Shown: positions 13,226 through 62,059 of the stretch, in pieces | Layout: each line of letters opens with the position of its first letter | Numbering within the stretch: the first letter of the stretch is position 1 | From: Alphaproteobacteria bacterium | GTDB taxonomy: Bacteria; Pseudomonadota; Alphaproteobacteria; MPNO01; VGEU01 | Reading direction: 5' to 3' | Assembly (NCBI GenBank): GCA_016869145.1 | Contig: VGEU01000003.1 | Location: forward strand, 664 to 64,663 | DNA length: 64,000 nt | The notes under the pieces: generated by a model | The model's input: the letters and a program-made list of their open reading frames with translations, nothing else | What the model was told of the DNA's origin: nothing | The model's database searches: none | Program-made: the position numbers and the translations under genes

Positions 13226-14362
13226 TCATTCGGCGGCGATCAGCCGGCCGATGATGATCCGCTGCACCTCGCTCGTTCCTTCGTAGATCTGGCAGACGCG
13301 CTGGTCGCGGTAGAGCCGCTCGACGAGCGTTCCCTCGAGAACGCCGATGCCGCCGTGGATCTGCACCGCCTCCGAGCACACGCGCTCGACCATCTCGGAG
13401 GCGAAGAGCTTCGCCATCGCGACCTCCTTCTGGTTCGGAAGGTCGGCATCGCGGAGCGCCGCGGCGTGGTGGGTCAGCGCCCGCGCCGCCTCGATCTCGG
13501 TCGCCATGTCGGCGAGCTTGAAGGCGATCGCCTGGTGGCCGATCAGCGTCGAGCCGAACGCCTCGCGCTTCCTCGCGTAGTCGCGTGCCGCCTCGTAGGC
13601 GGCCCGTGCGATGCCGATCGCCTGCGCCGCGATGCCGAGCCGACTGGTGCCGAGCCCGTCGAGCGCGATGCGATAGCCTTCACCGGGCTTGCCGAGCATC
13701 GCCGCGGCCGGCACGCGGCAGTTCGTGAACTCGATCCGCGCGGTGCCCGATGCCCGGATGCCGAGCTTGCGGTCGACCTCGGCGACGCGGTAACCGGGGG
13801 TCACGGTCGGCACGATGAAGCAGCTCATGCCCTTGGCGCCGGCGGCCGGGTTGGTGAGCGCGAAGACGAGGCAGAGCTCGGCATGCGAGCCCCCGGTGAT
13901 CAGCCATTTCGTCCCCTCGAGGACGTAATGATCGCCCTCGGCACGCGCGGTCATCGTGAGGCGCGCCGCATCGGACCCGGCCGCGGGCTCGGCGAGCGCG
14001 AAGCAGCCGAAGATCCGCCCGCGCGCGACCGGCTCGAGATGGCGCGTCCGTTGCTCGTCGGTCCCGAACTTGAGGAGCGGCCCGCACACCAGGGAGTTGT
14101 TGAGGCTGGTCACGACCGCAACCGAGGCATCGCCTGCGGCGAGCTCCTCGACGGCGAGTGCGAGCGAGAGCTGGTCGAGGCCCAGCCCGCCCCAACGGGT
14201 CGGCATATAGACCGCCATCAACCCGTCGCGGCCGAGGCGACGGAGCGTGTCGACCGGCAGGACGCCGGCCCGGTCGGCCGCGGCCGCATGCGGCAGGAGC
14301 TCGGCCGCGGCGAGCGCGCGGACCCGGTCGCGAAAGGCGGTCTGCTCGGGCGTCGGGATCAT
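13226..14362 (-). CDS. Acyl-CoA dehydrogenase
   Basis: FALAEPAAGSDA, GTKWLIT, KLGIRAS, REAFG, QIHGG, IYEGTSEVQR. Confidence 0.95.
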   Translation of the reverse strand: MIPTPEQTAFRDRVRALAAAELLPHAAAADRAGVLPVDTLRRLGRDGLMAVYMPTRWGGLGLDQLSLALAVEELAAGDASVAVVTSLNNSLVCGPLLKFGTDEQRTRHLEPVARGRIFGCFALAEPAAGSDAARLTMTARAEGDHYVLEGTKWLITGGSHAELCLVFALTNPAAGAKGMSCFIVPTVTPGYRVAEVDRKLGIRASGTARIEFTNCRVPAAAMLGKPGEGYRIALDGLGTSRLGIAAQAIGIARAAYEAARDYARKREAFGSTLIGHQAIAFKLADMATEIEAARALTHHAAALRDADLPNQKEVAMAKLFASEMVERVCSEAVQIHGGIGVLEGTLVERLYRDQRVCQIYEGTSEVQRIIIGRLIAAE

Positions 14363-14538
14363 GCGCGGGAACTCCGTTCGGTGGTGCGGCGACAGGATGT
14401 AACGCATTCGACACAACGCGAACAGCCAGGGCGTGCGAATGAAAATTGATCGCAACTGCAATGTGGGGCCTAATCGTCTCCGACCGCGCGGTAATGGCCT
14501 GTCATTGTCCTGCAACGTAGAACACCGGGTCTCACGCG

Positions 14539-15426
14539 ATGGAAATGCATCAGGTCCGGTATTTCCTCGCCGTGGCGCGCACGCTCAACTTCACGCGCGC
14601 CGCCGAGGAGTGCAATGTCTCGCAGCCCTCGCTCACGCGCGCCATACAGGCGCTCGAGGCCGAGCTCGGCGGCGAGTTGATCCGGCGCGAACGCACGCAC
14701 TCCCATCTCACCGAGCTCGGCACGCGCATGCTGCCGCTCCTCCAGCAATGCTACGACAGCGCGACGGCGGCGAAGACGGTCGCGCAGTCGGTGAAGCGCG
14801 GCGAGACCTCGCCGCTGTCGGTCGGCATCTCGTGCGCGGTGAGCGAGGCGGTGCTGACCGCTCCACTCCGCTCGCTCGTCGACCGGTTCAAAGGAGTCCA
14901 GCTGCGACTGAAGCGCGGCACGCCGGCCGAGATCTCGGCCTCCCTCAAGGCCGGCGAGATCGAGATCGCGGTCGCCGGGCCGCTCGCCGAAGACTGGGAC
15001 CGCGTCGACGCCTATCCTCTCTACGAGGAGCCGTTCGATCTTTTCGTCAGCCGCGAGCATCGGCTTGCCAAGAACGGCACCGTCGCGTTCGCCGATCTCC
15101 GCGATGAACGGCTTCTCGTCGACGTGAGCTGCGAGATGGCCGACACGGTGATGGCCGCGCTTAACGACATGGGCATCGACTGCGATGCAGCGCACCAGGT
15201 GACGACCGACCATGACCTGATGGCCCTGCTCGAGGCGAATATCGGCATCGCCGTGATCCCGGCGGGAACCATCTAGTCCAATCGCGTGGCGCGCGTCGGC
15301 CTCGACGGCCTCCGGCTCACCCGCCAGGTCTCGGCCTATGCCGTGGCGGGGCGGCGACGGTCGCCGGCTGTCGCGGCGTTCCTCAATCTCCTCCGGGCCG
15401 CAGCGTCGGCTAACGCGCAGCCCTGA
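14539..15426 (+). pseudogene. LysR-family regulator with in-frame TAG at 15274-15276
   Basis: HTH FTRAAEECNVSQPSLTRAI; reading through TAG gives SNRVARV...RRSPAVAAFLNLL, a normal LysR C-terminus, 295 codons total. Confidence 0.8.
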
Positions 15427-47610: not shown

Positions 47611-48459
47611 TCAGTTGCTCGAAGGCCGCCAGCTCTGGAAATAGCCTTCGACACGCTGCAGGACCGCGGAGATGCCAATCCCGGCGCCGGCGACGATCAC
47701 GACGCAGGCGAATAGCAGGTCGGTCTTGAACATCATGCCGGCCTGGCCGACGAGATAGCCGATGCCCTTGCTGCCGGCGAAGAACTCGCCGACGACGACG
47801 CCGATCAGACCATGCGCGAGCCCTTGGCGCAGACCGACGATGATGAACGGAACCGTCGAGGGCAGCACGACGGTGCGGAACAAGTCCCACTGCGTCGCGC
47901 GGAACGATCGCGCGGCGCCGAGCAGCTCATCGTCGGTCGTGCGCACGCCGGCCATCGCGTTGAGCAGGATCGGAAAGAACGCCGACAGGAATACGATGAA
48001 GGCCTTCGAGGCGAAGCCGAGACCGAACCAGATCACGATCAGCGGCACGAACACGATGCGCGGCGTCGAGTAGAGGCCGTTGATGAACGGATCCAGTATC
48101 AGGCGCGGCAGGCGATACCAGCCGAGAACGATGCCGAGAGGAATCGCGACGAGCGCGGCGATGCTGAACCCTGTTGCGAAGTTTTGGGCAGAGAAGGCGA
48201 GGTGCTCGAGGATGTCGCCCGAGCCGAACAGGCCGTCCCAGAGCCGCGCGAAGATCGCAGAAGGGCCGCTGAAGAAGAGGGGATCGATCCGGCCCGCGGA
48301 CCATGCGGCCTGCCAGATCGCCAGCACGAAGACGACCGACAAGCTGCCGACAATCGCGCCTTCGTTGCGCTGGTAGAAGCTCTCGGTCGGCCGCACGGGC
48401 TCCGCGCCCGCTGCGCCCGCGTCTGCCGGAATGACGGAGACCTGACCATCGGCGTTCAT
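47611..48459 (-). CDS. NitT/TauT ABC transporter permease
   Basis: [22 protein letters not shown]-like loop, VVVGEFF. Confidence 0.93.
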
Positions 48460-49289
48460 GCGCGAGCCTCTCCGGTTGTGGCTTCGGCGGTGCGCACCAG
48501 GCCGGCGCGCGTACCCTCCTCCTCGATCAAGGCCCAGATGCCATCGACCAGGGTGAGGAAGTCCGGCCGGCGCTTCAGCGCCAGCGTTCGAGGCCGCTCG
48601 AACGGCACCGCGAACTCCTGCTTCAGTCGTCCCGGGCGCGTGCCGAACACGATCACGCGGTCGGAGAGGAACGCGGCTTCGTCGATCTGGTGGGTGACGA
48701 AAAGCACGGTCTTGCCCGCGTGCGACCAGATGCGCAGCAACTCGGCCTGCATGAACTCGCGCGTCTGAGCATCGAGAGCGGCGAACGGCTCGTCCATCAG
48801 CAGAATCTCCGGATCGGTGGCGAGAGCGCGCGCGAGGTTGACGCGCTGCTGCATGCCGCCCGACAGCTCGGCCGGATAGTGCCGCTCGAACCCCGCGAGC
48901 CCGACCAACCTGATGTGATGCGCCGCCCGATCCTCGATCTCGGACTTGTCGAACTTGCGCTGCAGTTCCATCCCGTAGGTGACGTTCGCGAGCGTCGTGC
49001 GCCAAGGCAAGAGACGCGGTTGCTGGAACACCGTCGCACGATCGCGTCCCGGACCGTCGATCTGCTTGCCGGCGATCTCGATGCGTCCGGCGTCGGGTGC
49101 AAGAAGTCCGGTCGCGATATTGAGGAACGTTGTCTTGCCGCAGCCCGACGGCCCGACGATGCAGACGAACTCGCCCTCCGCGATCGACAGCGTGACATTC
49201 GTCAGCGCGGGGATCGGGTCCGGCTCCCCCTTCATCCAGAAATATTTGGAGATGCCTGTGGCGACGAGCTTGTTGGGGCGGGAACCCAT
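48456..49289 (-). CDS. NitT/TauT ABC transporter ATP-binding protein
   Basis: [31 protein letters not shown]. Confidence 0.95.
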
Positions 49290-49370
49290 CGGTTTGCCTC
49301 TTTGGCTCAGTTCCTGGCAGCGTTCCGAGCGGAACAGCACCTATCGCCAGGACACCGATCGGGCCGACAC

Positions 49371-50414
49371 CTAGCGGAAGGACTCGGCGCGCTTCGCAGC
49401 GATCTCTTGCTTGATCCCCGGGCCGAACACCTGCTCGAAGAAGCCCTGGTCGGCGAGCCGGTCGATCATGCTCTGATCGATCGCGCGCCGGAAATCGAAG
49501 GTCTCAAGCTCCGGCGTCTCCGCCTTGCCGCGTTGGACAATCCCAGACAAAGCGGTCTTCGGCACATACGGCACCCGTTCGAAGACCTGTGCCTTGATCG
49601 TTTCGTCATAGAGGCGCTCGAGTGTCTTGTCGTCGGTCTTCAGTTGCTTCTTCAGCACGCCCAGCACGAACGGCTTGTCGTCGTAGATGCGCTTGACCGC
49701 CTCGATATGCGATTTCAGGAACGCCTCGACGAGTTGCGGTGTCTCGTTCAACACCCGGCGGCGGAACATGTAGCTGGTCGCGATCGGGATCTGACGGTAG
49801 TCCTGCAGTTTGGCGAGTACGTTGAAGCCTTCCTCCTCGAGGAGGTAGTAGTCCGGCGAGGTCAGCATGGCCGCGTCCGCGAGACCGTTGCGCAGCGACA
49901 GCGCCCGTTGCGGGGGTGCACCGGCCGCAATCCACTGCATGCCTTTCGTATCGACCTTCAAGGCTTCGAGCACGCCGAGCGCGTAGAAGTAGGGTGGATC
50001 TCCGATACGGCCGACAGCGATGCGTTTCCGCTCGAGCGATTTGGCATCCGTGATGGCCTTGGTGCTGATCAGTGCGAACTGGCCGACGAGGAGGGGGCTC
50101 CCGATGATGACCACCTGATCGCCCCGAATCGCGGCGAGCATCGCGGTGTCAAGGCCGAGATTGTGCGTCAGCGCCTCGCCCGAGATCACCGCCGCGGGAC
50201 CTGCGGGATGCAGTGCGAAATCGACCGTCGCCGTGAGGCCGTTCTTCTCGAAGAGTCCGGCTTCCTTGGCGATCCAGAGCGGCCAGGTCGTGCTCGACGG
50301 CGCGGGATAGACGATCTTCACGCTCGTCATTCTGGATTGGGCGATGGCGGCATTCGGCCAAGCGACCAGCGTGGAAAGCAGCGCTGCTGTCATCATGCAC
50401 GAGACGCGCAACAC
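49371..50414 (-). CDS. NitT/TauT (SsuA/THI5-like) substrate-binding protein
   Basis: GTG after AGGAGG, signal peptide, PLWIAKEAGLFEKNGL. Confidence 0.88.
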   Translation of the reverse strand: MLRVSCMMTAALLSTLVAWPNAAIAQSRMTSVKIVYPAPSSTTWPLWIAKEAGLFEKNGLTATVDFALHPAGPAAVISGEALTHNLGLDTAMLAAIRGDQVVIIGSPLLVGQFALISTKAITDAKSLERKRIAVGRIGDPPYFYALGVLEALKVDTKGMQWIAAGAPPQRALSLRNGLADAAMLTSPDYYLLEEEGFNVLAKLQDYRQIPIATSYMFRRRVLNETPQLVEAFLKSHIEAVKRIYDDKPFVLGVLKKQLKTDDKTLERLYDETIKAQVFERVPYVPKTALSGIVQRGKAETPELETFDFRRAIDQSMIDRLADQGFFEQVFGPGIKQEIAAKRAESFR

Positions 50415-50586
50415 TGGATCCTCCTGTTCGCTTCTTTGGATCGCTCCATCATCGCCGGTTGCCGGCGCTACGGACAACAGTGCCGGCATTGCCTTGACAC
50501 TGATCTAACACGCAAACAGCACGCATACAATATGATATTAAGTTTGACCAGAAGTTTCCGACAGGATGCACGGGGAGCGCTGCGCC

Positions 50587-51603
50587 ATGAAGATCATCGA
50601 CTGCCACGCACATGTGAGTGCGCCAGCCGAGTTGTGGGCTTTCAAGGCTTCGCTCGTCTCGCATCGCGGCGCGCACGGGAGGGGAGGGCTCAAGTTCTCC
50701 GACGAAGAGATCCGCGCCGCTGTCGAGAAGAAGCGCTTCGAGGGCGGCGACAAGAGCCACATGGCCTTTCTCGACGAGGTCGGCACGCACGTGCAGTGCG
50801 TCTCGCCACGCCCGTTTCAGATGATGCATTCTGAGAAGCCGGCGAAAATCGTGCAGTGGCTCCACGAGGAGGTCAACAACGTCATCCACCGCCAGACGCT
50901 GCTCTACCCCGATCGCTTTGTCGGCATCGCCGGCCTGCCGCAACCGGCTGGCGAGCCGCTGGGGATGGCGATCGCGGAACTCGAGCGGTGCGTGAAGCTC
51001 GGCTTCAAGGGCTGCCTACTCAATCCCGACCCTTACGAGAACTCCGGCATCAAAGCGCCGGCGATGGGTGAGCGCTACTGGTATCCGCTCTACGAGAAGC
51101 TCTGTGAGCTCGATGTGCCCGCACACATCCACGCGACCGGCTCGCACTGCCCGGAGCGCGAACCCTATACGCTCCACTTCATCAACGAGGAGACGACCGC
51201 AACCTATGGCCTGGTCAGCTCGGATGTGTTTAAGGACTTCCCGACGCTCAAGATCGTGATGAGCCACGGCGGCGGTGCGATCCCGTTCCAGCTCGGCCGG
51301 TTCCAGGCAAGCTCGGCGCGCAAGCCCGGCGGCCAGCTGTTCGCCGATGCCATGCGGAACCTCTACTACGACACGGTGCTCTACACTGAGGAGGCGCTGC
51401 GCCTGCTCGTGAAGGTCGTCGGTGCCGATCGCTGCCTGTTCGGTGCGGAGTGTCCAGGCGTCGGCTCGGCGCGCAACCCGGAAACGGGCCGGACCTACGA
51501 CGACATCATGCCGCTCATCCGCGACGCCTCTTGGCTGAGTGCCGAGGACAAGGCCGGCATTCTCGCCGACAACGCGCGCAAAGTGTTCAAGCTCACGCAG
51601 TAG
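50587..51603 (+). CDS. ligY: LigY-like Zn amidohydrolase (meta-cleavage product C-C hydrolase)
   Basis: IIDCHAHVSAP.ELWA.KASL..HRG.HGRGG, SPRPFQMM, LLNPDPYEN, PAHIHATGS, PY.LHFINEET, SHGGGAIP, FGAECPGVG match Sphingobium LigY as recalled. Confidence 0.8.
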   Translation: MKIIDCHAHVSAPAELWAFKASLVSHRGAHGRGGLKFSDEEIRAAVEKKRFEGGDKSHMAFLDEVGTHVQCVSPRPFQMMHSEKPAKIVQWLHEEVNNVIHRQTLLYPDRFVGIAGLPQPAGEPLGMAIAELERCVKLGFKGCLLNPDPYENSGIKAPAMGERYWYPLYEKLCELDVPAHIHATGSHCPEREPYTLHFINEETTATYGLVSSDVFKDFPTLKIVMSHGGGAIPFQLGRFQASSARKPGGQLFADAMRNLYYDTVLYTEEALRLLVKVVGADRCLFGAECPGVGSARNPETGRTYDDIMPLIRDASWLSAEDKAGILADNARKVFKLTQ

Positions 51604-51620
51604 ACGGGAAGAACACGACG

Positions 51621-52634
51621 ATGGCGAGGATCGTCCTGGCGATGGCCACCACGCACGGCCCGCAACTCCATACCACAGTGGAGCAGTGGGCGTTGCGTGT
51701 GAAGGCGGATCAGGCGCGCAAGCATCCCTATCGCCGGGAGATGCGGAGCTTCGATGAGCTGGTGGCCATGCGGAGCGGCGAAGGGCTCGAGGCGAAGTCG
51801 AGCCCGACAGGGATGGCCGAATCCCACCGTCGCTGCCAGGCCGGCATGCGGGTGCTCGCCGCCAAATGGGACGAGATCAAGCCCGATATCGCGGTCGTGC
51901 TCGGCAACGACCAGAACGAGATGTTCGAGACCGAGGAGCTGAACCCGGCGTTCTTCGTCTTTTGCGGCGAGAAGATCCCGAACTATCTCCAGTCCGATGC
52001 GCGACGCAAAGAGCTGCCGCCGGGTGTTGCGGAAGCCGAGCATGGCCACGCGACCGAGACCTATACCGAATACGATGGCGTGCCCGATCTCGCCCGGCAC
52101 ATCGTGGACACGTTGATCGCGCGTGATTTCGATGTCGCGGTCTCGTCGAGATGGCCGCGCAACGCCCGGAACGGGGCCGGCCACGCGTTCGGGCACATCT
52201 ACCGCCAGGTCATGCGCGATAAAGTCGTGCCGAACGTGCCTATTCTGCAGAACACGTTCTTCCCGCCGAACCAGCCGTCGGCGCAGCGCGCCTATGACTT
52301 CGGGCGTGCGGTCAAGCAGGCGATCGACAGCTGGGCCGACGACAAGACGGTCGCCGTATTCGGCTCGGGCGGCATGAGCCACTTCGTCATCGACGAACAG
52401 TTCGACCGCGCGTTCGTCGATGCGCTGGCCCGGAAGGACAAGGACTACCTCGCCTCGATCCCGCTTTCCGATCTGCAGTCGGGCACATCGGAGCTCAAAT
52501 CCTGGATCACGCTGGCGGGCGTACTGAAAGATGTCGACTGCACGATGCACGAGATCGACTACGTGCCCTGCTACCGTTCGGTCGCGGGCACAGGAACGGC
52601 CAACGGCTTCTATTGGTGGGAGATGACGCGATGA
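51621..52634 (+). CDS. ligZ: LigZ/DesZ-like type II (LigB-fold) extradiol dioxygenase
   Basis: TTHGP, GNDQ, NTFFPPNQP, FGSGGMSHFVIDE, LQSGTSELK, PCYRS.AGTGTANGF; closer to LigZ than LigB as recalled. Confidence 0.72.
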   Translation: MARIVLAMATTHGPQLHTTVEQWALRVKADQARKHPYRREMRSFDELVAMRSGEGLEAKSSPTGMAESHRRCQAGMRVLAAKWDEIKPDIAVVLGNDQNEMFETEELNPAFFVFCGEKIPNYLQSDARRKELPPGVAEAEHGHATETYTEYDGVPDLARHIVDTLIARDFDVAVSSRWPRNARNGAGHAFGHIYRQVMRDKVVPNVPILQNTFFPPNQPSAQRAYDFGRAVKQAIDSWADDKTVAVFGSGGMSHFVIDEQFDRAFVDALARKDKDYLASIPLSDLQSGTSELKSWITLAGVLKDVDCTMHEIDYVPCYRSVAGTGTANGFYWWEMTR

Positions 52635-53296
52635 GGGGACCTCCGGCAGATCTCGTCGCGCGCTTGCGCAAGCTGGATTGTTGTGCGGTCTCCGACGCTC
52701 TCGATCAGTTGAAGCTCGGCGGCGTCGTGACGGGGCTGTTCACCCAGGGTTCTGGGACAGGCCGCATCTCCGGCCGCGTGATCACCGTCAAGCTCGGCGT
52801 CGGCCAGCCGAAGGATGCACCCCCCAAGCATCTCTGCACAACCGCGGTCGAGATCGGTGGTCCCGACGACGTCATCGTCATCGAGCAGCGTTCCGGCGTG
52901 GAAGCGGGTAGCTGGGGCGGCCTCCTCTCCCTCGGCGCGAAGACAAAGGGTATTGCCGGCGTCGTAGCCCATGGCCCCGTGCGCGATATCGATCAGGCGA
53001 TCGAGATGGGATTTCCGATTTTCGCGAGCGGCTACACCTCGCGCACGGCGCGCGGCCGGATCGTCGAGATCGGGACCAACGTCGCGATCGCGATCGACGA
53101 TGTCGCGGTCTCCCCGGCGGACTACGTGGTCGCCGATCGGAGTGCGGTGATCTTCATTGCGGCGGCGAACATCAGGGAGGTGCTCGAGACGGCCGAGCGG
53201 ATCACCGCCAAGGAGGATGCCATGGCCAAAGCGATTCTGGCCGGTACGCCGATCGGAACGGTGATGGGCGCAAGCTATGAGCACATGTTGAAGTAG
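52631..53296 (+). CDS. RraA/HMG-CHA aldolase (LigK-like) family protein
   Basis: AVSDALD, WGGLLS, GPVRD, GFPIF, VVAD. Confidence 0.88.
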   Translation: MRGPPADLVARLRKLDCCAVSDALDQLKLGGVVTGLFTQGSGTGRISGRVITVKLGVGQPKDAPPKHLCTTAVEIGGPDDVIVIEQRSGVEAGSWGGLLSLGAKTKGIAGVVAHGPVRDIDQAIEMGFPIFASGYTSRTARGRIVEIGTNVAIAIDDVAVSPADYVVADRSAVIFIAAANIREVLETAERITAKEDAMAKAILAGTPIGTVMGASYEHMLK

Positions 53297-53344
53297 GCGC
53301 CCTCCTCGTCCGCATCAACCTTTCAGAGCCCAACTGTCGACCAC

Positions 53345-54229
53345 ATGGCAAGAACCAAAGAACTCGACCCAGCGTCCCGCGTCACCAGACGATCGAAGGC
53401 GGCTCCCGCGTCCCGTGCCATTGCGCAACCAGTCGGGTGGCGGAGCGCGCGTAGCGAGCCGGCGGGATCGAGGATCGAACGCCAGATCAAGACCGCAATT
53501 CTGACCGGGCAGTGCCGCGCGGGAGACTTTCTGGGATCGGAGAACGAGCTTGCCGCCAGCATGGGCGTGAGCCGACTTCCTGTTCGTGAGGCGGTCAGCC
53601 GGCTGCAGGCGCTCGGGCTCGTCGAAGTCAAGACAGGCGCGGGCGGCGGCGTACGGGTCGCCACGGGAAAGCCCGATTACATCGCCGAGCTTCTGGCGAT
53701 ACAGCTCGTACTCGATCGCCTCGACGCAGAGGAGGTCCTGGTCGCCCAGCGGATCGTCGAGGTCGCCGCCGTCGGCATGGCCGCCCGGAATGCGACCGCC
53801 GAAGCGCTGGCGCTGATGCGCGGCGCACTGGATGAGGTCGAGCGCCTTGTCGAGCAACCCGAATTGTTCACGGCTGCCTCCATGGCCTTTCATGCGGCGA
53901 TCGGCGGCGCCTCGCAGAACCGGTTCCTGTCGATCATGATGCAGGCCATCGCGATCACGCTCGAGCAGGTCAATGCGCCGGATACGACCGTCGAAGTCGC
54001 GCGCATGGTGGCGGGGCGCCACCGCAAACTCTTGCACGCCATTGAGGCCCGCGATGAGGCGGCGAGCGTCGCGCTGATCGCGCATCATCTTGAGCGCGTC
54101 CATCGCCATGTCCTGGCGCGCCTCGGAGGAAATGCGGCCTCGACGCACGATCCACGTCGCTCCGATAAGGCAAAGACTCCCGTCGTGGTGAGGCGGGAGA
54201 ACGGACGAATGCGGAGAACCGACACGTAA
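53345..54229 (+). CDS. GntR/FadR-family transcriptional regulator
   Basis: LGSENELAASMGVSRLPVREAVSRL HTH; FCD domain FHAAI..ASQN, HRKL. Confidence 0.92.
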   Translation: MARTKELDPASRVTRRSKAAPASRAIAQPVGWRSARSEPAGSRIERQIKTAILTGQCRAGDFLGSENELAASMGVSRLPVREAVSRLQALGLVEVKTGAGGGVRVATGKPDYIAELLAIQLVLDRLDAEEVLVAQRIVEVAAVGMAARNATAEALALMRGALDEVERLVEQPELFTAASMAFHAAIGGASQNRFLSIMMQAIAITLEQVNAPDTTVEVARMVAGRHRKLLHAIEARDEAASVALIAHHLERVHRHVLARLGGNAASTHDPRRSDKAKTPVVVRRENGRMRRTDT

Positions 54230-54351
54230 GGAAGGTTCGGCCGATCCTGAAGGACCTACGCGTCGCCAAGGCGACTGCCGGTGTGCGATGACTAAGAGCG
54301 CCGGCAGCGCCGTTGAGCGATGCGCGCGCGTGAGAATGGAGACCCGATTTC

Positions 54352-55524
54352 ATGCGAACGCAGGTGGGAATTGTCGGGGCCGGGCCGGCCGGGCTCTTGC
54401 TCGGCAGAATGCTGCAGAACCTCGGCATCGACGCGGTGGTGTTGGAGAGCAGGTCCCGCGATTACGTCTTGGCGCGGATCAGGGCGGGCGTGCTCGAGCA
54501 GGGTACGGTCGACACGCTGATCGCGCAGGGCATCGGCGATCGGTTGCGGCGTCAGGGTATGGTGCACGAGAACATGCAGATCCGTTGGGCGGGTCGGCGG
54601 AACGATTTCACTGTCGAGGACGAGAAGGGACGGCGTCTGACGACCTATGGTCAGGCCGAAATCGTCAAGGACCTGATCGAACGGCGTGAGGCGGACAATT
54701 TGCCCCTCTTGTTCTCTGCGCCCGCGCAGCGAATCGAGAATGTCGAGACGCGGCCGCGTATCCATTTCACGCACGAGGGGGCTGAGAGGACGCTCGATTG
54801 CGATTTCGTGGCAGGCTGCGACGGATTTCATGGCGTCTGCCGGAAGCACATTCCGAACGCCGACGATCGCACCTTTCTCAAGACCTATCCCTATGGCTGG
54901 CTCGGCATTCTGGCCGAGGCCGCACCGCACGCCGAGATCCGCGGGTTCGCTCACAGTACGCGGGGATTTGCCGTCGCCTCGGCCCGGTCGCCGAAGATCG
55001 GTCGGCTCTACCTCCAGGTCGATCGAAACGAGGACATCGAACGGTGGAGCGACGAGGCGATCTGGGACGAGCTCGACCGACGCTTCGAGGATGGGTCCGG
55101 CCACCGCCTCAATCGTGGTCGGATCCTGAAAAAGGATCTCGCGCCGCTGCGTGCCTTCGTGTGCGAGGCCATGCAGCATGGCCGGATCTTCCTCGCCGGT
55201 GACGCCGCACATATCGTGCCGCCCTCCGGCGCGAAGGGGCTTAATTCGGCAGTCGGCGACGTCAGGGTTCTGGCGGAGGGCTTGCGCCGGCATTTCGCGG
55301 GGACGGGTTCCGATCTGCTCGATCACTATGCCGAGATCTGCCTGAGGCGGATCTGGGCGACCGTGCATTGGTCGTGTCTCCTGACCGATACACTCCACAT
55401 CGCGCCCAACCAGACAGGCTTCGACCTTCAGATGCAGTATGCGACACTGAACCACTGGGCGAAGACAGAGTTGGGGCGTCAGCACTTCTGCAATGCAATG
55501 CTTGGGTTGCCCTATGAGGTCTGA
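54352..55524 (+). CDS. pobA: 4-hydroxybenzoate 3-monooxygenase homologue with altered active site
   Basis: GAGPAG, RIRAGVLEQ, GCDGFHG, YPYGWLG, GDAAHIVPPSGAKGLN, GLPY. Confidence 0.88.
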   Translation: MRTQVGIVGAGPAGLLLGRMLQNLGIDAVVLESRSRDYVLARIRAGVLEQGTVDTLIAQGIGDRLRRQGMVHENMQIRWAGRRNDFTVEDEKGRRLTTYGQAEIVKDLIERREADNLPLLFSAPAQRIENVETRPRIHFTHEGAERTLDCDFVAGCDGFHGVCRKHIPNADDRTFLKTYPYGWLGILAEAAPHAEIRGFAHSTRGFAVASARSPKIGRLYLQVDRNEDIERWSDEAIWDELDRRFEDGSGHRLNRGRILKKDLAPLRAFVCEAMQHGRIFLAGDAAHIVPPSGAKGLNSAVGDVRVLAEGLRRHFAGTGSDLLDHYAEICLRRIWATVHWSCLLTDTLHIAPNQTGFDLQMQYATLNHWAKTELGRQHFCNAMLGLPYEV

Positions 55525-55621
55525 GGATCGGATGATCGCCACCCGGGCAACTCGCGCCAGCCCTCGTCTCCGAAGCCTGCGTGACCATGGCGATTGAGCA
55601 ACCCGAATTGGATCGATGAGA

Positions 55622-56572
55622 ATGGGCAAGATCGACATTTCGAATGCGACGCGCCCGACGCGGGCGCGGATCGGCGGCAGCGACAGAGATCGTGCAGCGC
55701 GCTTCAGCAAGCGCATGCCGCCTGCCGCCAAGCGCAGCGTGTTCCTCCGCAACAATGTCCTGCTGCCCATCAGGACGCCGCCGGTCAATCCGGAGCGCAC
55801 TGAAATTCCCGACCCGCCGCAGGCCACCGAAGTGATCAAGCAACTGGTCCGCGACATGGGCGTCGATGACGTCGGCATCGCCGAGATCGATCGCCGCCTG
55901 CTCTTCACGCAGGCGGGCGAGCTTCAGCACACGAGGGCCATCGTCTACGGAATCGCGATGTCGTTCGACACCATGGCCGATATCGGTCCACGCTCGCAGG
56001 ACGAGGTTCATCGCGTCTATCGCAAGCTCGACGAGACCGGCGTCCGCCTCGCCCAGCATATCGCCGCCTACGGCTACAATGCCTCGATGCAGCCGAACGA
56101 GGGCGATGTGCCGCTGGTCGCCATGGCGCAAATGGCAGGCCTCGGCGAACTGGGCAAGCACGGCTCGCTGATCTCGCCGAAGATGGGTGCATCATTCCGG
56201 CTCGGCGCGGTGACGACCGACATGCCGCTCCTCGCCGACGGACCGAAGGACTTCGGCTTCGATGAGGTGTGCACGAAATGCGGCGTATGCACCCGGTTCT
56301 GCCCGGGCGATGCGATCAACCCGGATAAGCAGGTCGTCAATGGGATCGAGCGGTGGCACGTCGACACGCCCGCCTGCGAGCCCTATTTCCACAAGCTCTA
56401 TGGCTGCAAGATCTGCCTGATGGTGTGCCCGCTCAATAGCCGTGGCATGTTCGGCCAAGAATTCAGGGCGGCGTCGAAGGTGCTCGTCCAGACCAAGGAC
56501 GCCAAAGGAATGTTGCAGCTCATCGAGGCGCGCACCGACATGAACTACGAGGACTTCAGCGATCTCGAGTGA
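55622..56572 (+). CDS. Small reductive dehalogenase-like cobalamin/2x[4Fe-4S] protein
   Basis: GVDDVGI, AGLGELGKHG.LISP..G...RL..VTTDMPL..D.PKDFG, CTKCGVCTRFCP, C-x9-CKICLMVCP; no Tat signal. Confidence 0.8.
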   Translation: MGKIDISNATRPTRARIGGSDRDRAARFSKRMPPAAKRSVFLRNNVLLPIRTPPVNPERTEIPDPPQATEVIKQLVRDMGVDDVGIAEIDRRLLFTQAGELQHTRAIVYGIAMSFDTMADIGPRSQDEVHRVYRKLDETGVRLAQHIAAYGYNASMQPNEGDVPLVAMAQMAGLGELGKHGSLISPKMGASFRLGAVTTDMPLLADGPKDFGFDEVCTKCGVCTRFCPGDAINPDKQVVNGIERWHVDTPACEPYFHKLYGCKICLMVCPLNSRGMFGQEFRAASKVLVQTKDAKGMLQLIEARTDMNYEDFSDLE

Positions 56573-56843: not shown

Positions 56844-57635
56844 CTAGCGCGCGAGGAACGCCTCGACCGCCTCGGCGACCGCCTGCGGCTGGTCGAAGTC
56901 CGCCATGTGGCCGGCGCCCGCGATCAGCGTGATCTTCACCTCGCCCGCGATCGCCTCGGCGAAGCGCGTGGCGTAGGCGCGCGACATCACGCGGTCGTCG
57001 TCGCCCCAGATGATCAGGGTCGGGCAGGTGATCCGCGGCAGGCGGCGGCGTACCCGCGTATCGCCGAGCGGCCACAGATAGCGCGCGGCGGCGTTGCGCG
57101 TGCGCTGCTGGGCGATGTCCCACTCGACGACCTCGTTCGCGTCGTTGCTGTCGGCGCGGACATAGGCCTCGACCTCGGCCGGACGGTTGGACACCAGCGG
57201 CGCGTAGGCGCCCGGCCGCTGCGCGAACACGTCCGAGATCGGGTCGCTCGGCTCGAACAGCCCGAGCGGGCCGATCAGCACGAGGCGGCGCACCGAGCGC
57301 GGCCACAGCGCCGCGACCTCGGCGGCGAGCGCGCCGCCCGCCGATGCGCCGATCAGATCGGCGCCGTCGAGCCCGGCGCCGAACCACGCGTCGCCGCTCG
57401 CGAGCGCCCAGTCGAGATGGCTGTCGAGATCCTCCCAATCGGCCCCGCCCGGCGTGCCGGGGAGCGAGGGGGCGACGACGCGCCGGGTGCGCGCGAGCGC
57501 ATCGAGGAACGGCAGCCAACGCGGCAGTCCGAGGAGGCCCGCGAAATAGCCGACCCGCGGACCCGACCCCTTCTCCCAGACACGGAAACGACCGCCGCCC
57601 GGCGCCGTGCCCCGACGCTCGTCCGGCGCGCTCAT
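56844..57635 (-). CDS. Alpha/beta fold hydrolase
   Basis: GASAGG nucleophile elbow, IWGDDD, GAGH. Confidence 0.88.
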   Translation of the reverse strand: MSAPDERRGTAPGGGRFRVWEKGSGPRVGYFAGLLGLPRWLPFLDALARTRRVVAPSLPGTPGGADWEDLDSHLDWALASGDAWFGAGLDGADLIGASAGGALAAEVAALWPRSVRRLVLIGPLGLFEPSDPISDVFAQRPGAYAPLVSNRPAEVEAYVRADSNDANEVVEWDIAQQRTRNAAARYLWPLGDTRVRRRLPRITCPTLIIWGDDDRVMSRAYATRFAEAIAGEVKITLIAGAGHMADFDQPQAVAEAVEAFLAR

Positions 57636-58879
57636 GCCGGGATCGCCATCGGTGCCACGCGCTCGGCCGCGGTCATCGGCTTCGGCCACCAATGGTCTTC
57701 CCACTTGTCGTCGAACAGGCCGTGGATCTGCGGCATGACTTTCTCGGCGAAGAGCCGCGTGTTGTAGTTGGTGACCTCCTTCGACATGTTGCCGAACTGC
57801 AGCAGCAGCATCAGGTGGCCGACATTGAGATTGACCGCCACCTCGCGGAGCTGATCGGCGACCTCGTCGGGGCTGCCGATGATGACGTGTCCCTTCTCGA
57901 GGATGTTGTCCATCTCGGCATTGGCCGGGCGCGCGAGCGTCGCTTGAGCGGCCGCCTTCACGATCTGCGAATCGAGCCTCGCCCGCACCGTCGCCTCGCT
58001 GGTGTAGCCGGGCGGCTGGGTGAACTTGGGGTCGAGATGGAGGCAGCGGTTGTAGAAATAGTTGGCCGGTTCCGCATAGAGCTTCACGGCCTCCGCGCGC
58101 GTCTCGGCGACGCCGACCGCCTGCAGGAAGCCGGCATGATAGGGATTGGGCTCGACCCCCATTGCCTTCATCTCGTCCCAGAACCCCTTCATGACCTGGA
58201 TTCCGGACTTGTAGCCCCAGTACGACAGATAGGCGTAAACGAAGTCGTTCTCGGCGCACATGCGCCAGGTCTCGACCGAGCCCGAGCCCGGCACCCAGAC
58301 CGGCGGGCGCGGCTTCTGGATCGGACGCGGCCAGATGTTGACGTAGCGGTACTGGTTGAAGCGGCCGTTATAGGCGAAGGGCTTCGGCTCCTCCCACGCG
58401 CGCTTGATCAGATCGATCGCCTCGTAATAGCGCGGGCGCAACAGCGACGGGTTCTGGCTGTAGGCGTAGCAGGTGTCCATCGGCGTGCCGACCGGAAAGC
58501 CCGCGATCATCCGCCCGCCGGAGATGACGTCGATCATCGCGAACTCCTCGGCGACCCGGATCGGCGGGTTGTAGAGCGCGAGCGAGTTGCCCATGACGCA
58601 GAGCATCGTGTCCTTGGTGCGCCGCGCGAGCGAGGAGGCGATCAGGTTGGGCGACGGCATCAGCCCGTAGCCGTTGGAGTGGTGCTCGTTGACGCAGATG
58701 GCGTCGAAGCCCTGCGCGCCCGCGTATTCGAGCTCGTCCATGAAGTCGTTGTACATGACGTGCGCGCGCGCCGGGTCGAACAGGCTCGAGTCGACCTCAA
58801 CCCAGACGCCGGGGTGCTTCTCCTTGAAATCCTCAGGAAGCTCCGTATAGGGCATCAGGTGGAACCAGCAGATCTTCAT
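57632..58879 (-). CDS. LLM-class flavin-dependent monooxygenase
   Basis: FHLMPY, VNEHH, PIRVAEEFAMIDVISGGR, PRPIQKPRPP. Confidence 0.92.
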   Translation of the reverse strand: MKICWFHLMPYTELPEDFKEKHPGVWVEVDSSLFDPARAHVMYNDFMDELEYAGAQGFDAICVNEHHSNGYGLMPSPNLIASSLARRTKDTMLCVMGNSLALYNPPIRVAEEFAMIDVISGGRMIAGFPVGTPMDTCYAYSQNPSLLRPRYYEAIDLIKRAWEEPKPFAYNGRFNQYRYVNIWPRPIQKPRPPVWVPGSGSVETWRMCAENDFVYAYLSYWGYKSGIQVMKGFWDEMKAMGVEPNPYHAGFLQAVGVAETRAEAVKLYAEPANYFYNRCLHLDPKFTQPPGYTSEATVRARLDSQIVKAAAQATLARPANAEMDNILEKGHVIIGSPDEVADQLREVAVNLNVGHLMLLLQFGNMSKEVTNYNTRLFAEKVMPQIHGLFDDKWEDHWWPKPMTAAERVAPMAIPA

Positions 58880-59033
58880 GGCGAGCCTCGTGCGATTGTC
58901 CGACGGTATGACGGGTCGGGCTACTGTGACGGATGGCCGGGGCGGGCGCAACAGACCGACCGTGGCTTTGTTGCGGATCGTCGAGGCGCGTTGTACCGAT
59001 AGGGCTTCGCAGACGGCGATCGGGGTGCCGGCC

Positions 59034-60416
59034 ATGGACGACCACGGACCGCCCAACTCCCTGTCGCGCCGGGACGCGGCGCGCGTGTTCCACCCCTATG
59101 CGGCGGCGGCGCGCGTCGATCTCGACGGGCCGATGGTGATCGCGCGCGGGGAGGGCATCTATATCTACGACGAGGACGGCAAGGACTATATCGAATCGCT
59201 CGCGGTCCTCGGCGCGGTCTCGCTCGGCTTCGGCAACAAGCGCCTCGCCGCCGCGGCCGCGCGCCAGATCGAGACGCTCTCCTTCTATCACACGTTCCAG
59301 ACCAAGACGAACCCGCCCGTCGTCGCGCTCGCCGAGCGCCTCCTCGCGATCGCGCCGCCGCCAATGGCCAAGGTGTTCTTCACGAGCTCGGGCTCGGAGG
59401 CGAACGACACCGCGATCAAGCTGATCTGGTTCTACAACAACGCGCTCGGGCGCCCGGCGAAGAAGAAGATCCTGTCGCGCCACGGCGCCTATCACGGCGT
59501 CACGATCGCGACCGCGAGCCTCAACGGGCTTCCCGCCAACCATCGTGGGTTCGACCTGCCGCTCCCCGGCTTTCTCCACGCCGACTGCCCGCATCATTAC
59601 CGGCTCGGACGGGAAAGCGAGAGCGAGGCCGCGTTCGCCGCGCGCATGGCCGACGAGCTCGAGCAGCTCATCCTCCGCGAAGGGCCGGAGACGATCGCCG
59701 CGATGTTCTTCGAGCCGGTGATGGGCGCCGGCGGCATGATCTTCCCGCCTGCCGACTACTGCCGTCGGGTCGAGGCGATCTTGCGCCAATACGACATCCT
59801 TCTCGTCGACGACGAGGTCATCTGCGGCTTCGGCCGCACCGGGCGGATGTGGGGCGCGGAAACCTACGGCCTCCGGCCCGACATCGTGACCATCGGCAAG
59901 GCGCTGTCGTCCGGCTATATGCCGATCGCGGGGCTGATGGTATCGGATGCCCTCCACGACGTCGTCCGCCGCCACGTCGAGACGCTCGGCGTGTGGGGCC
60001 ACGGCTACACCTATTCCGGACACCCGGTCGCCGCGGCGGTCGCGAACGAGACGCTCGCGATCTACGCCGAGACCGACATCCTCGCGCATGTGCGGCGGAT
60101 CGCGCCGGTCCTCCAGGCCGGGATCGCGCGCTTCGCCGATCACCCGCATATCGCCGATGTGGGCGGTGTCGGGTTGATGGCGTCCTTCGAGCTCGTGTCC
60201 GACAAGCGCACGCGCAAGCCCTTCGACGCCGGCCTCGCCGTCGGCCCGCATCTCCGCGCCAACGCGCTCCGCCACGGCCTCATCGTGCGCGCGATCGGCG
60301 ACCGGATCGGCTTCACGCCGCCGCTCGTGATCGACGAGGCGGGCATCGCGGAGATGTTCCGCCGCTTCGCGCGCGCGCTCGCCGACACGACCGACTGGCT
60401 CTCGCAGTCGCGCTGA
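59034..60416 (+). CDS. Class III PLP aminotransferase (omega-amine transaminase-like)
   Basis: SGSEAND, AYHG, EPVMGAGG, DEVICGFGRTG, GKALSSG, HGYTYSGHP. Confidence 0.95.
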   Translation: MDDHGPPNSLSRRDAARVFHPYAAAARVDLDGPMVIARGEGIYIYDEDGKDYIESLAVLGAVSLGFGNKRLAAAAARQIETLSFYHTFQTKTNPPVVALAERLLAIAPPPMAKVFFTSSGSEANDTAIKLIWFYNNALGRPAKKKILSRHGAYHGVTIATASLNGLPANHRGFDLPLPGFLHADCPHHYRLGRESESEAAFAARMADELEQLILREGPETIAAMFFEPVMGAGGMIFPPADYCRRVEAILRQYDILLVDDEVICGFGRTGRMWGAETYGLRPDIVTIGKALSSGYMPIAGLMVSDALHDVVRRHVETLGVWGHGYTYSGHPVAAAVANETLAIYAETDILAHVRRIAPVLQAGIARFADHPHIADVGGVGLMASFELVSDKRTRKPFDAGLAVGPHLRANALRHGLIVRAIGDRIGFTPPLVIDEAGIAEMFRRFARALADTTDWLSQSR

Positions 60417-60692
60417 CGCGACCGTCCGAACCGAACGCGTATCGCCGTTGCCCTGATTGGCGTCGCGCTCGCGGTTGATCCGGTGATGGATCGCCGCGCC
60501 CGAGACATGGATCGGGCCGGCCTGGAAGCGCCGCGACCATCCGCCGCGTCCCGCCGTCCTTGTCGGCGAGACGGGCGCGATCCCGTTCGCAATCCCTGGT
60601 CAGCCCCGTCCTCGGCTCGCTAAGATCGAAACAGCGCGACAGGGTTCGCGACGGGGATGCGCCCCGTCCGGCGTCCTCGACGGGAAGGATCG

Positions 60693-60872
60693 ATGAGCGG
60701 CAAGGAGATCAGATGGTCGGCCGGCGCGGGCGGCCCCGGTGCCCGCTCGGTGGTCGACGTGGTGGCAGAGGGGCTCCGTGCCGGCGTGAAGGTCTACGAG
60801 ATCATGCGCGACGACGACCGGCTCTTCGCGCGCGCCGTCGACGGACGGCCGAGAAAGACGGAGGATTCGTGA
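60693..60872 (+). CDS. 59-aa hypothetical protein coupled to the Rieske oxygenase
   Basis: RBS GGAAGGA, host-like codon use, TGA overlaps next ATG (TGATG). Confidence 0.5.
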   Translation: MSGKEIRWSAGAGGPGARSVVDVVAEGLRAGVKVYEIMRDDDRLFARAVDGRPRKTEDS

Positions 60873-62059
60873 TGGCAACGACGGCATCGACGACCGGCAA
60901 CGCCGACCGCCGGCTCTACGCGCCCTATCTGGAGGCGACGTGGGGGATCAAGAACCACTGGTATCCGGCGCTGTTCAGCCACGAGCTCGCCGAGGACGGC
61001 GTCAAGGGGGTGGAGATCGCGGGCGTCCCGATCCTTCTTCGCCGCGCCAAGGGCAGGACCTATGCGCTGCTCGACCGCTGCGTCCACCGCGGCGTCAAGC
61101 TCTCGCTCAAGCCGACCTGCTTCACCGACGACACGGTGTCGTGCTGGTATCACGGCTTCACCTTCGACGTCGTGAATGGCGCGCTGGTGTCGATCGTCGC
61201 CTCGCCGGACGATCCGCTGATCGGCAAGGTCAGGCTCCGCACCTTCCCGGTCGAGGAGCACAAGGGGATCATCTTCGTCTTCGTCGGCGACGAGGGCTAT
61301 GAGCCGGTGCCGCCGCTCGCGGACGATCTGCCGTGGCTACCGCCCTGCGACTACGACTATCGCGCCGCCCATCCGCTCGACGACGAAACGGTCATGCTCG
61401 GCATCCGCCGCGTCGGCAAGGCGAACTGGCGGCTCGCGGTCGAGAACGGATTCGATCCCGGCCACGTCCTGATCCATCGCGACAACATCCTGATCCTCGC
61501 CTCCGGCCGCTCGATGGCGCTCGGCTACCGGCCGCTCAACGACGAGGCGATCAAGGCGTTCGAGGACGACGGGCCGAAGGGTCTGATGAACATGTATGGC
61601 ACCGGCAATTACGAGCCGGTGGTCAACAATGACCGCCTCAACATCAAGAGCGCGGCGCGGCGCGAGTTCAACTTCACGGGCGTCCGCACCTCGATGTTCC
61701 TGCCCGGCGTGCTGATGGTCGAGAACTTCCCCGAAAAGACCTACGCCCAGTACGAATGGTACGTGCCGATCGACGACAAGACGCATGTGTACTGGCAGGT
61801 CATCGCCGGCTGGTGCCCGACGCCCGAGGATCGGAAGAACTTCGAGTTCCGGTTCAAACACTATTTCGAGCCGGTGGCGCTCCGCGACTTCAACGATCAC
61901 GATCTCCACGCGCGCGAGGCGATGCAGGATTTCTATGCCAATGGCGGCTGGCAAGAGGAGGCGCTCTGCTCGATGGACGCGGTGATCGTGAGCTGGCGCA
62001 AGATGGTCGCCCGGCACAATCGCGGTATCCAGGAACCTCCGACGCGTCGCGGCCGCTGA
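60872..62059 (+). CDS. Rieske oxygenase, 2-oxoquinoline 8-monooxygenase (OxoO)/CarAa-like
   Basis: NHWYPALF.HEL, CVHRGV.LS.KPTCFT..T.SCWYHG, ENGFDPGH..IH.DN, LPGVLMVEN.PE, QYEWYVPI, FND.DL.AREAMQ.FY resemble P. putida 86 OxoO as recalled. Confidence 0.88.
   Translation: MATTASTTGNADRRLYAPYLEATWGIKNHWYPALFSHELAEDGVKGVEIAGVPILLRRAKGRTYALLDRCVHRGVKLSLKPTCFTDDTVSCWYHGFTFDVVNGALVSIVASPDDPLIGKVRLRTFPVEEHKGIIFVFVGDEGYEPVPPLADDLPWLPPCDYDYRAAHPLDDETVMLGIRRVGKANWRLAVENGFDPGHVLIHRDNILILASGRSMALGYRPLNDEAIKAFEDDGPKGLMNMYGTGNYEPVVNNDRLNIKSAARREFNFTGVRTSMFLPGVLMVENFPEKTYAQYEWYVPIDDKTHVYWQVIAGWCPTPEDRKNFEFRFKHYFEPVALRDFNDHDLHAREAMQDFYANGGWQEEALCSMDAVIVSWRKMVARHNRGIQEPPTRRGR

Follow-up and report, generated by a model that had tools for sequence, protein, structure and literature searches.

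PobA is the textbook model of a flavoprotein hydroxylase, and two tyrosines in its active site are regarded as essential for the activation of the substrate. What reaction, then, would a PobA relative catalyze once it has given up both of them? The question is raised by a PobA-like open reading frame (ORF) at positions 54352-55524 of the stretch of alphaproteobacterial DNA studied here (64,000 nucleotides of contig VGEU01000003.1, hereafter the window), where it lies close to genes resembling ligY and ligZ. As described below, the protein belongs to a natural subfamily in which the floor of the phenol pocket has been rebuilt, and it may be a hydroxylase for 4-hydroxybenzoates substituted at C5.

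A PobA-family protein without the tyrosine relay

The ORF is complete and uninterrupted and encodes a full-length protein. In a phmmer search of the PDB chains, its residues 1-389 align to residues 1-391 of the p-hydroxybenzoate hydroxylase of P. fluorescens/P. aeruginosa with two one-residue gaps (E ~1e-110, 372 bits). It matches the Pfam family FAD_binding_3 (PF01494) at 253.7 bits, and the FAD fingerprints GAGPAG, CDGFHG and LAGDAAH, of the GxGxxG, DG and GD types, are all present in the translation. The score for the NCBIfam subfamily NF006091 is well above the threshold (497.4 bits; cut-off 351), while the equivalog TIGR02360 (4-hydroxybenzoate 3-monooxygenase, EC 1.14.13.2) is not reached (441.7 bits; cut-off 538.7). 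Its sequence puts the protein in the PobA family of group A flavoprotein monooxygenases but outside the PobA equivalog.

In canonical PobA, Tyr201 and Tyr385 form a relay that hydrogen-bonds and deprotonates the 4-OH of the substrate. Both are gone from the window protein. The HMMER alignment and a MAFFT alignment of 120 homologues, which reproduces the same column assignments, place Arg, Gly and Phe at PobA positions 199-201, Ser at 294 and Met at 385 (PobA numbering is used from here on; the codons are given in Table 1), and they add L210V as a further change in the pocket. Position 382 is occupied by Cys (codon 55489-55491). The binders of the C1 carboxylate, S212, R214 and Y222, are kept together with R220 in both alignments, and the alignment of the 120 homologues shows the same for H72, R44, P293, K297 and N300. 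The original prediction, made from the DNA alone, had named the equivalents of L199R, I200G, Y201F, T294S and Y385M at the very same codons, the retention of S212, R214, R220 and Y222, and the loss of both tyrosines; each of these is borne out, with Phe and Met, and no Tyr, at positions 201 and 385 in a proper alignment.

The substitutions mark a single clade

A homologue search covered 5.8 billion proteins, and the best 120 matches, the query among them, were listed. The best 100 of these 120 (52-100% identity, the query being the 100%) all carry the signature; among the listed matches, the L-[IV]-Y ... T ... Y pattern of canonical PobA appears from about 53% identity downwards. In a FastTree phylogeny of 249 PobA-family sequences, including proteins translated from the retrieved loci, the signature was present in 122 sequences, which form a single clade with a support of 1.0. 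The clade is clean: zero non-signature sequences fall within it and zero signature sequences outside it.

The residues are strongly conserved on both sides of this division, to a degree that chance would by no means produce. Within the clade (n = 122) there are 119 sequences with R199, 122 with G200, 112 with F201 (the other 10 have Tyr), 107 with V210 and 121 with S294; position 385 is Met in 99, and otherwise Gln, Ala, Thr or Ile. A second new arginine, A382R, brings another new positive charge near the pocket in 103 of the 122 members; in the window protein and the two sequences closest to it, the residue is Cys, Ser or Val. The other 127, canonical, sequences have L199 (118), Y201 (127), L210 (127), T294 (125), A382 (124) and Y385 (123), with a range of L/V/I/M at position 199 and I/V/T/A at 200. 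Because 122 of the 249 sequences share the substitutions in one clade of full support, these are, judging from the tree, a conserved feature of a subfamily and not drift. The clade may be among the eight clades (A-H) of Katsuki et al. (2023; PMC10770758). The literature searched, with most subscription journals outside it, yielded no paper that characterizes the signature clade or ties a PobA-like enzyme to biphenyl genes.

What the rebuilt pocket resembles

In the available part of the report on XaPobA (PMC10770758), residues 72, 75, 199, 201 and 385 make up the floor of the cavity, next to the two hydroxyls (3- and 4-) of the bound protocatechuate. Since positions 199, 201 and 385 are placed there, the changed residues should line the space ortho to the 4-OH, away from the flavin.

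XaPobA (PDB 8jqo/8jqp) is itself a natural PobA relative without Tyr201 and Tyr385, and the window protein matches its structures at 365-368 bits in the same phmmer search, similar to its score with PobA. It belongs to clade F, the natural protocatechuate 5-hydroxylases, which accept a 3-substituted 4-hydroxybenzoate; clade F is limited to Burkholderiales, and the accessible text states no physiological role for it (PMC10770758). The pockets of the two groups are, however, built differently. Clade F has V/I199, W201, M210 and F385 in a hydrophobic cavity (PMC10770758, as far as the available text goes), whereas the signature clade has R199, G200, F201, V210 and M385 with a cationic floor. The alignments uphold the substitutions, and the ORF has none of the clade F residues. 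The identity of the window protein as a clade F protocatechuate hydroxylase was rejected, as it has R, F, V and M at positions 199, 201, 210 and 385.

A closer likeness comes from the laboratory. The L199R/T294C/Y385M variant that the original prediction had named does exist: Maxel et al. selected it, as DA015, by growth that depended on the hydroxylation of protocatechuate by P. aeruginosa PobA (bioRxiv 10.1101/2020.05.11.088898, consulted in part). In the model presented there, Arg199 touches the 3-OH of the ligand and Met385 makes room, and the activity of DA015 on 4-hydroxybenzoate is given as about half that of the wild type. The natural clade shares with DA015 the Arg199, a smaller residue at position 294, and Met385. 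DA015 retains I200, Y201 and L210 and has Cys294, while the natural clade has G200, F201, V210, Ser294 and usually R382.

The gene neighborhood of the subfamily

The LigY-, LigZ-, RraA-, GntR/FCD- and PobA-like genes of the window (50566-55524) and an Fe-S gene downstream are all on the + strand and separated by short gaps (Table 1). The LigY-like protein matches the crystallized LigY of Sphingobium SYK-6 over residues 10-343 with 470 bits (E 3e-140), against 192 bits for the hydratase LigJ (6dwv), and the N-terminal HxH metal motif is kept ("DCHAHV" aligned to "DCHGHV"). The LigZ-like protein gives weak matches to the LigB and DesB structures in the PDB. Its homologues of 68-91% identity are all of the 337-aa class, and some bear the JGI label "OH-DDVA oxygenase/3-O-methylgallate 3,4-dioxygenase", which does not separate LigZ from DesZ. 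The RraA-like gene is the only member of its family found in the genome of the window by tblastn with the queries used.

A first search for loci with generic PobA motifs gave 78 canonical loci and 2 clade loci out of 80. A clade-specific DNA pattern was then written for R-G-[FY]-x-H ... G ... PP[ST]G[AG]KG; it matched 3 of 112 loci (L004 and L005, both of the clade, and L001, the window copy), once in the window, and retrieved 21 metagenome loci. With L115 and L130 excluded from the counts for holding less than 300 residues of the gene, 22 clade loci were counted besides the window, and LigY-like linkage was scored wherever the locus DNA contained a gene with 45% identity or more. By this measure, a LigY-like gene adjoins the clade member at nine of the 22 loci (L004, L005, L117, L121, L123, L126, L128, L131 and L134), the copies being 57-66% identical; several of these loci are near-identical, which leaves about six independent lineages plus the window. 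The syntenic LigZ-like copies at other clade loci have 47-54% identity. Six loci (L114, L116, L119, L122, L129 and L132) carry RraA-type genes only. At the canonical pobA loci, the linkage was found at none of 107, despite their longer flanks (median 15.9 kb vs 4.8 kb); the best LigY-like match there, at 38%, is a LigJ in two classical protocatechuate 4,5-cleavage clusters. The LigY-linked loci lie on both sides of the clade root in the tree, so the linkage is probably ancestral to the clade.

An annotated operon is present on the Aminobacter aminovorans plasmid pAA01. Its order is genes for an aldehyde dehydrogenase, a 417-aa amidohydrolase, a small protein, a small Rieske protein and a 553-aa FAD oxidoreductase, followed by LigY-like, LigZ-like and three RraA-family genes, and then the clade member, annotated as "4-hydroxybenzoate 3-monooxygenase". 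An FCD regulator flanks it, as in the window. The same RefSeq name is used for the clade member at this locus (L134, pAA01, 14001-15173) and on five other Aminobacter plasmids; RefSeq calls the LigZ-like gene of Aminobacter a "hypothetical protein", and that of Polymorphobacter is named "protocatechuate 3,4-dioxygenase". Such names of the clade member and of the LigZ-like genes look like annotation errors. Three tandem RraA-family genes are found at L134 (11974-13954), L004 (7915-9958) and L129 (10434-12314); of these, just the third is similar to the LigK-type aldolase found in classical 4,5-cleavage clusters (60-62% identity), and the window has only the first of the three types.

A related operon occurs on a Polymorphobacter megasporae plasmid (L139, 10661-17429), with a LigY-like gene (61.6%), a LigZ-like gene, three RraA genes and an aldehyde dehydrogenase, headed by a divergent flavin monooxygenase of group A that belongs to a different, unrelated family (PRK07538, 511 bits). 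Here the hydroxylase seems to have been replaced by a non-orthologous enzyme; that another flavin monooxygenase heads the operon suggests that the LigY-LigZ-RraA module needs a hydroxylase. The operon adjoins hydroxycinnamoyl-CoA hydratase/lyase and CoA-ligase genes.

Other genes are present in some of the clusters. Several clade clusters have a second flavin hydroxylase of 540-550 aa, which in Aminobacter scores 262 bits with RebC and 154 bits with 2-hydroxybiphenyl 3-monooxygenase; Ramlibacter-type clusters have a TctC-type binding protein; and some clusters have Amidohydro_2 proteins of about 420 aa that are distantly like aromatic-acid decarboxylases. The last family, for which the nearest structures are deposited simply as "Amidohydrolase 2" (8sm6-8sm9), has undergone a strong expansion: the genome of the window has at least eight tblastn matches (40-58%) to the Aminobacter protein, on contigs C112, C15, C10, C24, C1 (three) and C6.

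A proposed hydroxylase for 5-substituted 4-hydroxybenzoates

The interpretation we favor, with a chance of being right that we judge to be about even, is that the PobA-like protein is a 3-hydroxylase for 4-hydroxybenzoates bearing a bulky and/or anionic group at C5, with a 5-5'-linked dicarboxybiphenyl as the likeliest substrate. In the SYK-6 pathway, as described in the accessible parts of PMC6874591 and PMC12997858, the catechol used by LigZ is made from dehydrodivanillate by LigX, a Rieske O-demethylase. PobA-type enzymes place the new hydroxyl meta to the carboxylate, in the position ortho to the 4-OH, and with a 5-aryl-4-hydroxybenzoate this very position would yield the catechol ring of OH-DDVA. 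The floor of the pocket has been rebuilt where the C5 substituent would sit, LigZ needs a catechol, and a LigXa-type Rieske O-demethylase is absent from these clusters, that of the window included; on these grounds the order hydroxylase, LigZ, LigY, aldolase is proposed.

The steps and the substrate that we infer are as follows. The enzyme keeps the parts of PobA that serve FAD and the C1 carboxylate, with a phenol-pocket floor that has been rebuilt, enlarged and made cationic. It would hydroxylate C3 of a 4-hydroxybenzoate with a bulky or negative C5 group to give a catechol, which the adjacent LigZ-type extradiol dioxygenase could open; the ring-fission product might then be split by the adjacent LigY-type hydrolase, and the aliphatic fragment passed on to the RraA-type aldolase. 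The likeliest substrate would be 2,2'-dihydroxy-5,5'-dicarboxybiphenyl with at least one ring free of methoxy groups, and the PobA-like enzyme would fill the role that the O-demethylase LigX has with dehydrodivanillate in Sphingobium SYK-6. The original prediction had pointed to a substituted benzoate of greater bulk or acidity as the substrate, with R199 possibly binding a second carboxylate or hydroxyl, and had included dicarboxy-dihydroxybiphenyl among its test substrates; this direction is supported by the clade, the location of the changed residues, the failure with the equivalog, the operon and the co-occurrence of canonical PobA in other carriers of the gene (see below).

Several observations weigh against this proposal. 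The combination of R199, a small residue at 294 and M385 matches a variant that was selected for protocatechuate, not for a biphenyl, and that variant kept about half of the 4-hydroxybenzoate activity (bioRxiv 10.1101/2020.05.11.088898, in the part available). The label of the LigZ-like proteins is shared with DesZ, a 3-O-methylgallate dioxygenase. A 4-oxalomesaconate (OMA) tautomerase and a LigJ-like hydratase elsewhere in the genome fit a gallate route, and the sole PobA of this genome might have to serve 4-hydroxybenzoate. The larger flavin hydroxylase of several clade clusters could be the biphenyl hydroxylase instead. Finally, at seven of the 22 clade loci (L113, L118, L120, L124, L125, L127 and L133) the locus DNA shows none of the partner genes; most of them are 2-4 kb, but two, L120 with 9.9 kb and L124 with 7.5 kb, extend far enough to reveal another context. 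Encoded at L120 are a LigB-type dioxygenase, aldehyde dehydrogenases, an FAA-hydrolase-type protein and an HpaI-type aldolase, and at L124 a BphC-type dioxygenase and DmpFG-type genes; extradiol dioxygenases and meta-pathway genes are present at these two as well, which counts in favor of the proposal.

A more novel reading would make the subfamily a flavin-dependent entry to 5-5' biphenyl (dehydrodivanillate-type) catabolism that replaces the three-component Rieske O-demethylase LigXacd. In its boldest form, the enzyme would attack dehydrodivanillate itself, through ipso-hydroxylation of the methoxy carbon with the release of methanol, much as PobA displaces fluoride from fluorinated substrates; one PobA-like enzyme would then suffice for an oxidative O-demethylation. 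We consider this reading a long shot.

Other substrates

The enzyme might instead be a natural 5-hydroxylase of protocatechuate (or vanillate) that produces gallate (or 3-O-methylgallate), which the LigZ/DesZ-like dioxygenase would cleave; the LigY-like protein would hydrolyze a methyl ester or otherwise process the ring-fission product, and the RraA-type aldolase would end the pathway. The pocket nearly copies that of DA015, the best laboratory-selected protocatechuate hydroxylase, whose Arg199 was modeled on the 3-OH (bioRxiv 10.1101/2020.05.11.088898, consulted in part), and the JGI label on relatives of the dioxygenase points the same way. So do the genes for an OMA tautomerase and for LigJ-like and LigI-like proteins on another contig of a genome in which no intradiol dioxygenase was found, and the position of the Polymorphobacter operon, with its aldehyde dehydrogenase, beside hydroxycinnamoyl-CoA hydratase/lyase genes. 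On the other hand, the residues V199, W201, M210 and F385 of the known natural protocatechuate hydroxylases (clade F; PMC10770758, available text) are not in the window protein, and I200G, Y201F and A382R (103 of 122) go beyond the needs of an extra hydroxyl or methoxyl. The most constant neighbor is LigY-like rather than LigJ-like and has no obvious role in a gallate route, and a vanillate 5-hydroxylation route was not found in the literature searched. Such a route is unlikely, though it deserves serious thought.

A second possibility is a monoaryl dicarboxylate, for example 4-hydroxyisophthalate, either imported or formed as the LigY product of an unmethoxylated distal ring. The additional carboxylate would be bound by R199, and hydroxylation would take place at the free ortho carbon. 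The cationic floor, with R199 in 119 and R382 in 103 of the 122 members, would suit such a substrate. The TctC-type family handles di- and tricarboxylates, and the binding protein of this type in Ramlibacter-type clusters, like the decarboxylase-like Amidohydro_2 proteins of some clusters, would fit as well. However, the known hydroxylase of this compound, HipH, yields protocatechuate by replacing the carboxyl group (PMC13599478, in the accessible portion). The pocket changes I200G, Y201F and Y385M give more room than a carboxylate needs, and the minimal clusters of PobA-like, LigY and LigZ genes would still need a source of catechol for LigZ. HipH is reportedly dimeric, at about 110 kDa, in keeping with the larger class of hydroxylases. 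We regard a substrate of this kind as distinctly unlikely.

Could the protein simply be an ordinary 4-hydroxybenzoate 3-hydroxylase with another, lineage-specific way of activating the phenol, e.g., through an Arg199 that stabilizes the phenolate? It is the only PobA-family gene of a genome that is 99% complete, it keeps the carboxylate triad, H72, P293, K297 and N300, the looser NCBIfam model is passed, and DA015 shows about 50% of the wild-type activity on 4-hydroxybenzoate (bioRxiv 10.1101/2020.05.11.088898, as far as available). Yet the proton relay has lost its two tyrosines and the equivalog model failed; a clade member coexists with a canonical PobA in Aminobacter and Ramlibacter genomes, the LigY/LigZ synteny is seen at 0 of 107 canonical genes, and the genome of the window is without a recognizable protocatechuate 3,4- or 4,5-dioxygenase equivalog. 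Taken together, these make an ordinary PobA very unlikely.

Lastly, a hydroxylase of halogenated or otherwise acidified 4-hydroxybenzoates, paired with the reductive dehalogenase (RDH)/QueG-like Fe-S protein whose gene starts 92 bases downstream on the same strand, is extremely improbable, even if an acidic phenol would presumably not need the Tyr201/Tyr385 relay: the RDH-like gene lies beside none of the 22 other clade loci, which by itself led us to demote the link, and its product is below the cut-off of the RDH model TIGR02486 (112 vs 160 bits) and, at 318 aa, shorter than catabolic dehalogenases generally are.

Features of the window

Table 1. Genes and diagnostic codons around the PobA-like ORF.
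Feature	Positions	Strand	Basis and remarks
ABC-transporter permease, TauC/SsuC-like	47611..49005	-	Pfam BPD_transp_1, NCBIfam; upstream, divergent
LigY orthologue, amidohydrolase-superfamily hydrolase predicted for the OH-DDVA meta-cleavage compound	50566..51603	+	PDB 5vn5/6e6i, Pfam Amidohydro_2
LigZ/DesZ-type class III (LigB-family) extradiol dioxygenase, 337 aa	51621..52634	+	Pfam LigB
RraA-like protein, HMG/CHA aldolase family	52613..53296	+	Pfam RraA-like, NCBIfam, PDB 3noj/3k4i
GntR/FCD transcriptional regulator	53345..54229	+	Pfam GntR and FCD
PobA-family FAD-dependent aromatic hydroxylase, R199-G200-F201/S294/M385 subfamily, 390 aa	54352..55524	+	HMMER, MAFFT, Pfam, NCBIfam, tree
R-G-F codons, PobA positions 199-201 (ORF R197-G198-F199)	54940..54948	+	HMMER alignment, MAFFT columns, DNA pattern match
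Ser codon, PobA position 294 (ORF S292)	55225..55227	+	HMMER and MAFFT
Met codon, PobA position 385 (ORF M383)	55498..55500	+	HMMER and MAFFT
Reductive-dehalogenase/QueG-like protein, 318 aa, two 4Fe-4S motifs	55616..56572	+	TIGR02486, Fer4 domains

The ABC-transporter permease is possibly part of an uptake system; its true start is probably internal, since the domain spans residues 217-460. Two further ORFs of this transporter region are at 48456-49340 and 49371-50489. Membership of the RDH/QueG-like gene in the system is doubtful. Its product scores 72.5 bits with QueG, and paralogues of 30-33% identity are present on contigs C9 and C43 of the same genome.

Further downstream in the window is a Rieske oxygenase gene (60560-62059, +), the only one near the cluster. 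Its product matches 2-oxo-1,2-dihydroquinoline 8-monooxygenase with 442 bits and carbazole 1,9a-dioxygenase with 312 bits. The former match led us to reject a LigXa identity for it, and its identity with the Rieske gene in the vicinity of the Polymorphobacter cluster is no more than 24%. Directly upstream of it (56844-60416) are genes for a luciferase-like monooxygenase, a class III aminotransferase and an alpha/beta hydrolase.

Genome context and distribution

The genome of the window consists of 3.9 Mb in 247 contigs. A second PobA-family gene was not found in it, the next matches being flavoproteins of 28-29% identity; nor did any of its four LigB-family proteins reach an equivalog cut-off. 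On contig C42 (1-8000) there is an OMA tautomerase gene (538 bits; cut-off 440), which adjoins genes for a LigJ-like amidohydrolase and a LigI/4-sulfomuconolactone-hydrolase-like protein.

The subfamily appears to be thinly spread. A sample of 400 further genomes of the class to which the window belongs gave no match above 50% identity, and 64 of them carry a PobA of 38-50%; in the order that includes Aminobacter sp. AP02, 400 further genomes were without a match at E <= 1e-125. A search of 72,556 plasmids matched 245 records, with a clade member in six, all of them Aminobacter megaplasmids (58.5-58.7% identity), and at most 52.5% identity in the rest. An Aminobacter genome and a Ramlibacter metagenome-assembled genome each carry one clade member plus one canonical PobA, of 43% identity. 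The G+C content is 63-65% over positions 48000-56000 of the window and about 69% on either side. These sparse matches, together with the G+C dip, suggest that the clade gene is rare, patchily distributed and probably horizontally transferred. The dip coincides with the block of transporter, LigY, LigZ, RraA, GntR and PobA-like genes.

Significance

Here an entire natural subfamily dispenses with both PobA tyrosines and places an arginine on the floor of the pocket instead. Evolution and laboratory growth selection have arrived at nearly the same answer: R199, a small residue at position 294, and M385. If the logic of the operon holds, the subfamily would offer a route into the condensed 5-5' dimers of lignin that does without a Rieske O-demethylase, and a single-component hydroxylase for bulky carboxylated phenols, should it prove to be one, would be useful in lignin valorization and biocatalysis. 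There is also a consequence for annotation: some genes annotated as "4-hydroxybenzoate 3-monooxygenase", such as those on the Aminobacter plasmids, probably do something else.

Comparison with known systems

Compared to canonical PobA (PDB 1pbe, 1pxb), the window protein is alike in its full-length alignment, FAD motifs, carboxylate binders (S212, R214, Y222 and R220), H72, P293, K297 and N300, and differs in the six pocket positions (L199R, I200G, Y201F, L210V, T294S and Y385M), in the relay tyrosines among them, and in its gene neighborhood. At the level of the pathway, the window shares a LigY-type hydrolase and a LigZ/DesZ-type dioxygenase with the DDVA pathway of SYK-6 (LigXacd, LigZ, LigY, LigW); instead of a LigXa-type gene, the cluster has the PobA-like hydroxylase for what would be the catechol-forming step, and an RraA-type aldolase is included in the operon.

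The proposed sequence of reactions has a counterpart in the hbpCAD system for 2-hydroxybiphenyl, in which the monooxygenase HbpA, the dioxygenase HbpC and the hydrolase HbpD carry out flavin-dependent hydroxylation to a catechol, extradiol opening and C-C cleavage. The same three-step logic would apply to the window operon, but with proteins of other families: a PobA-type enzyme in place of HbpA, a LigB-type dioxygenase in place of the vicinal-oxygen-chelate type, and an amidohydrolase in place of the alpha/beta-hydrolase, all acting on what would be carboxylated substrates.

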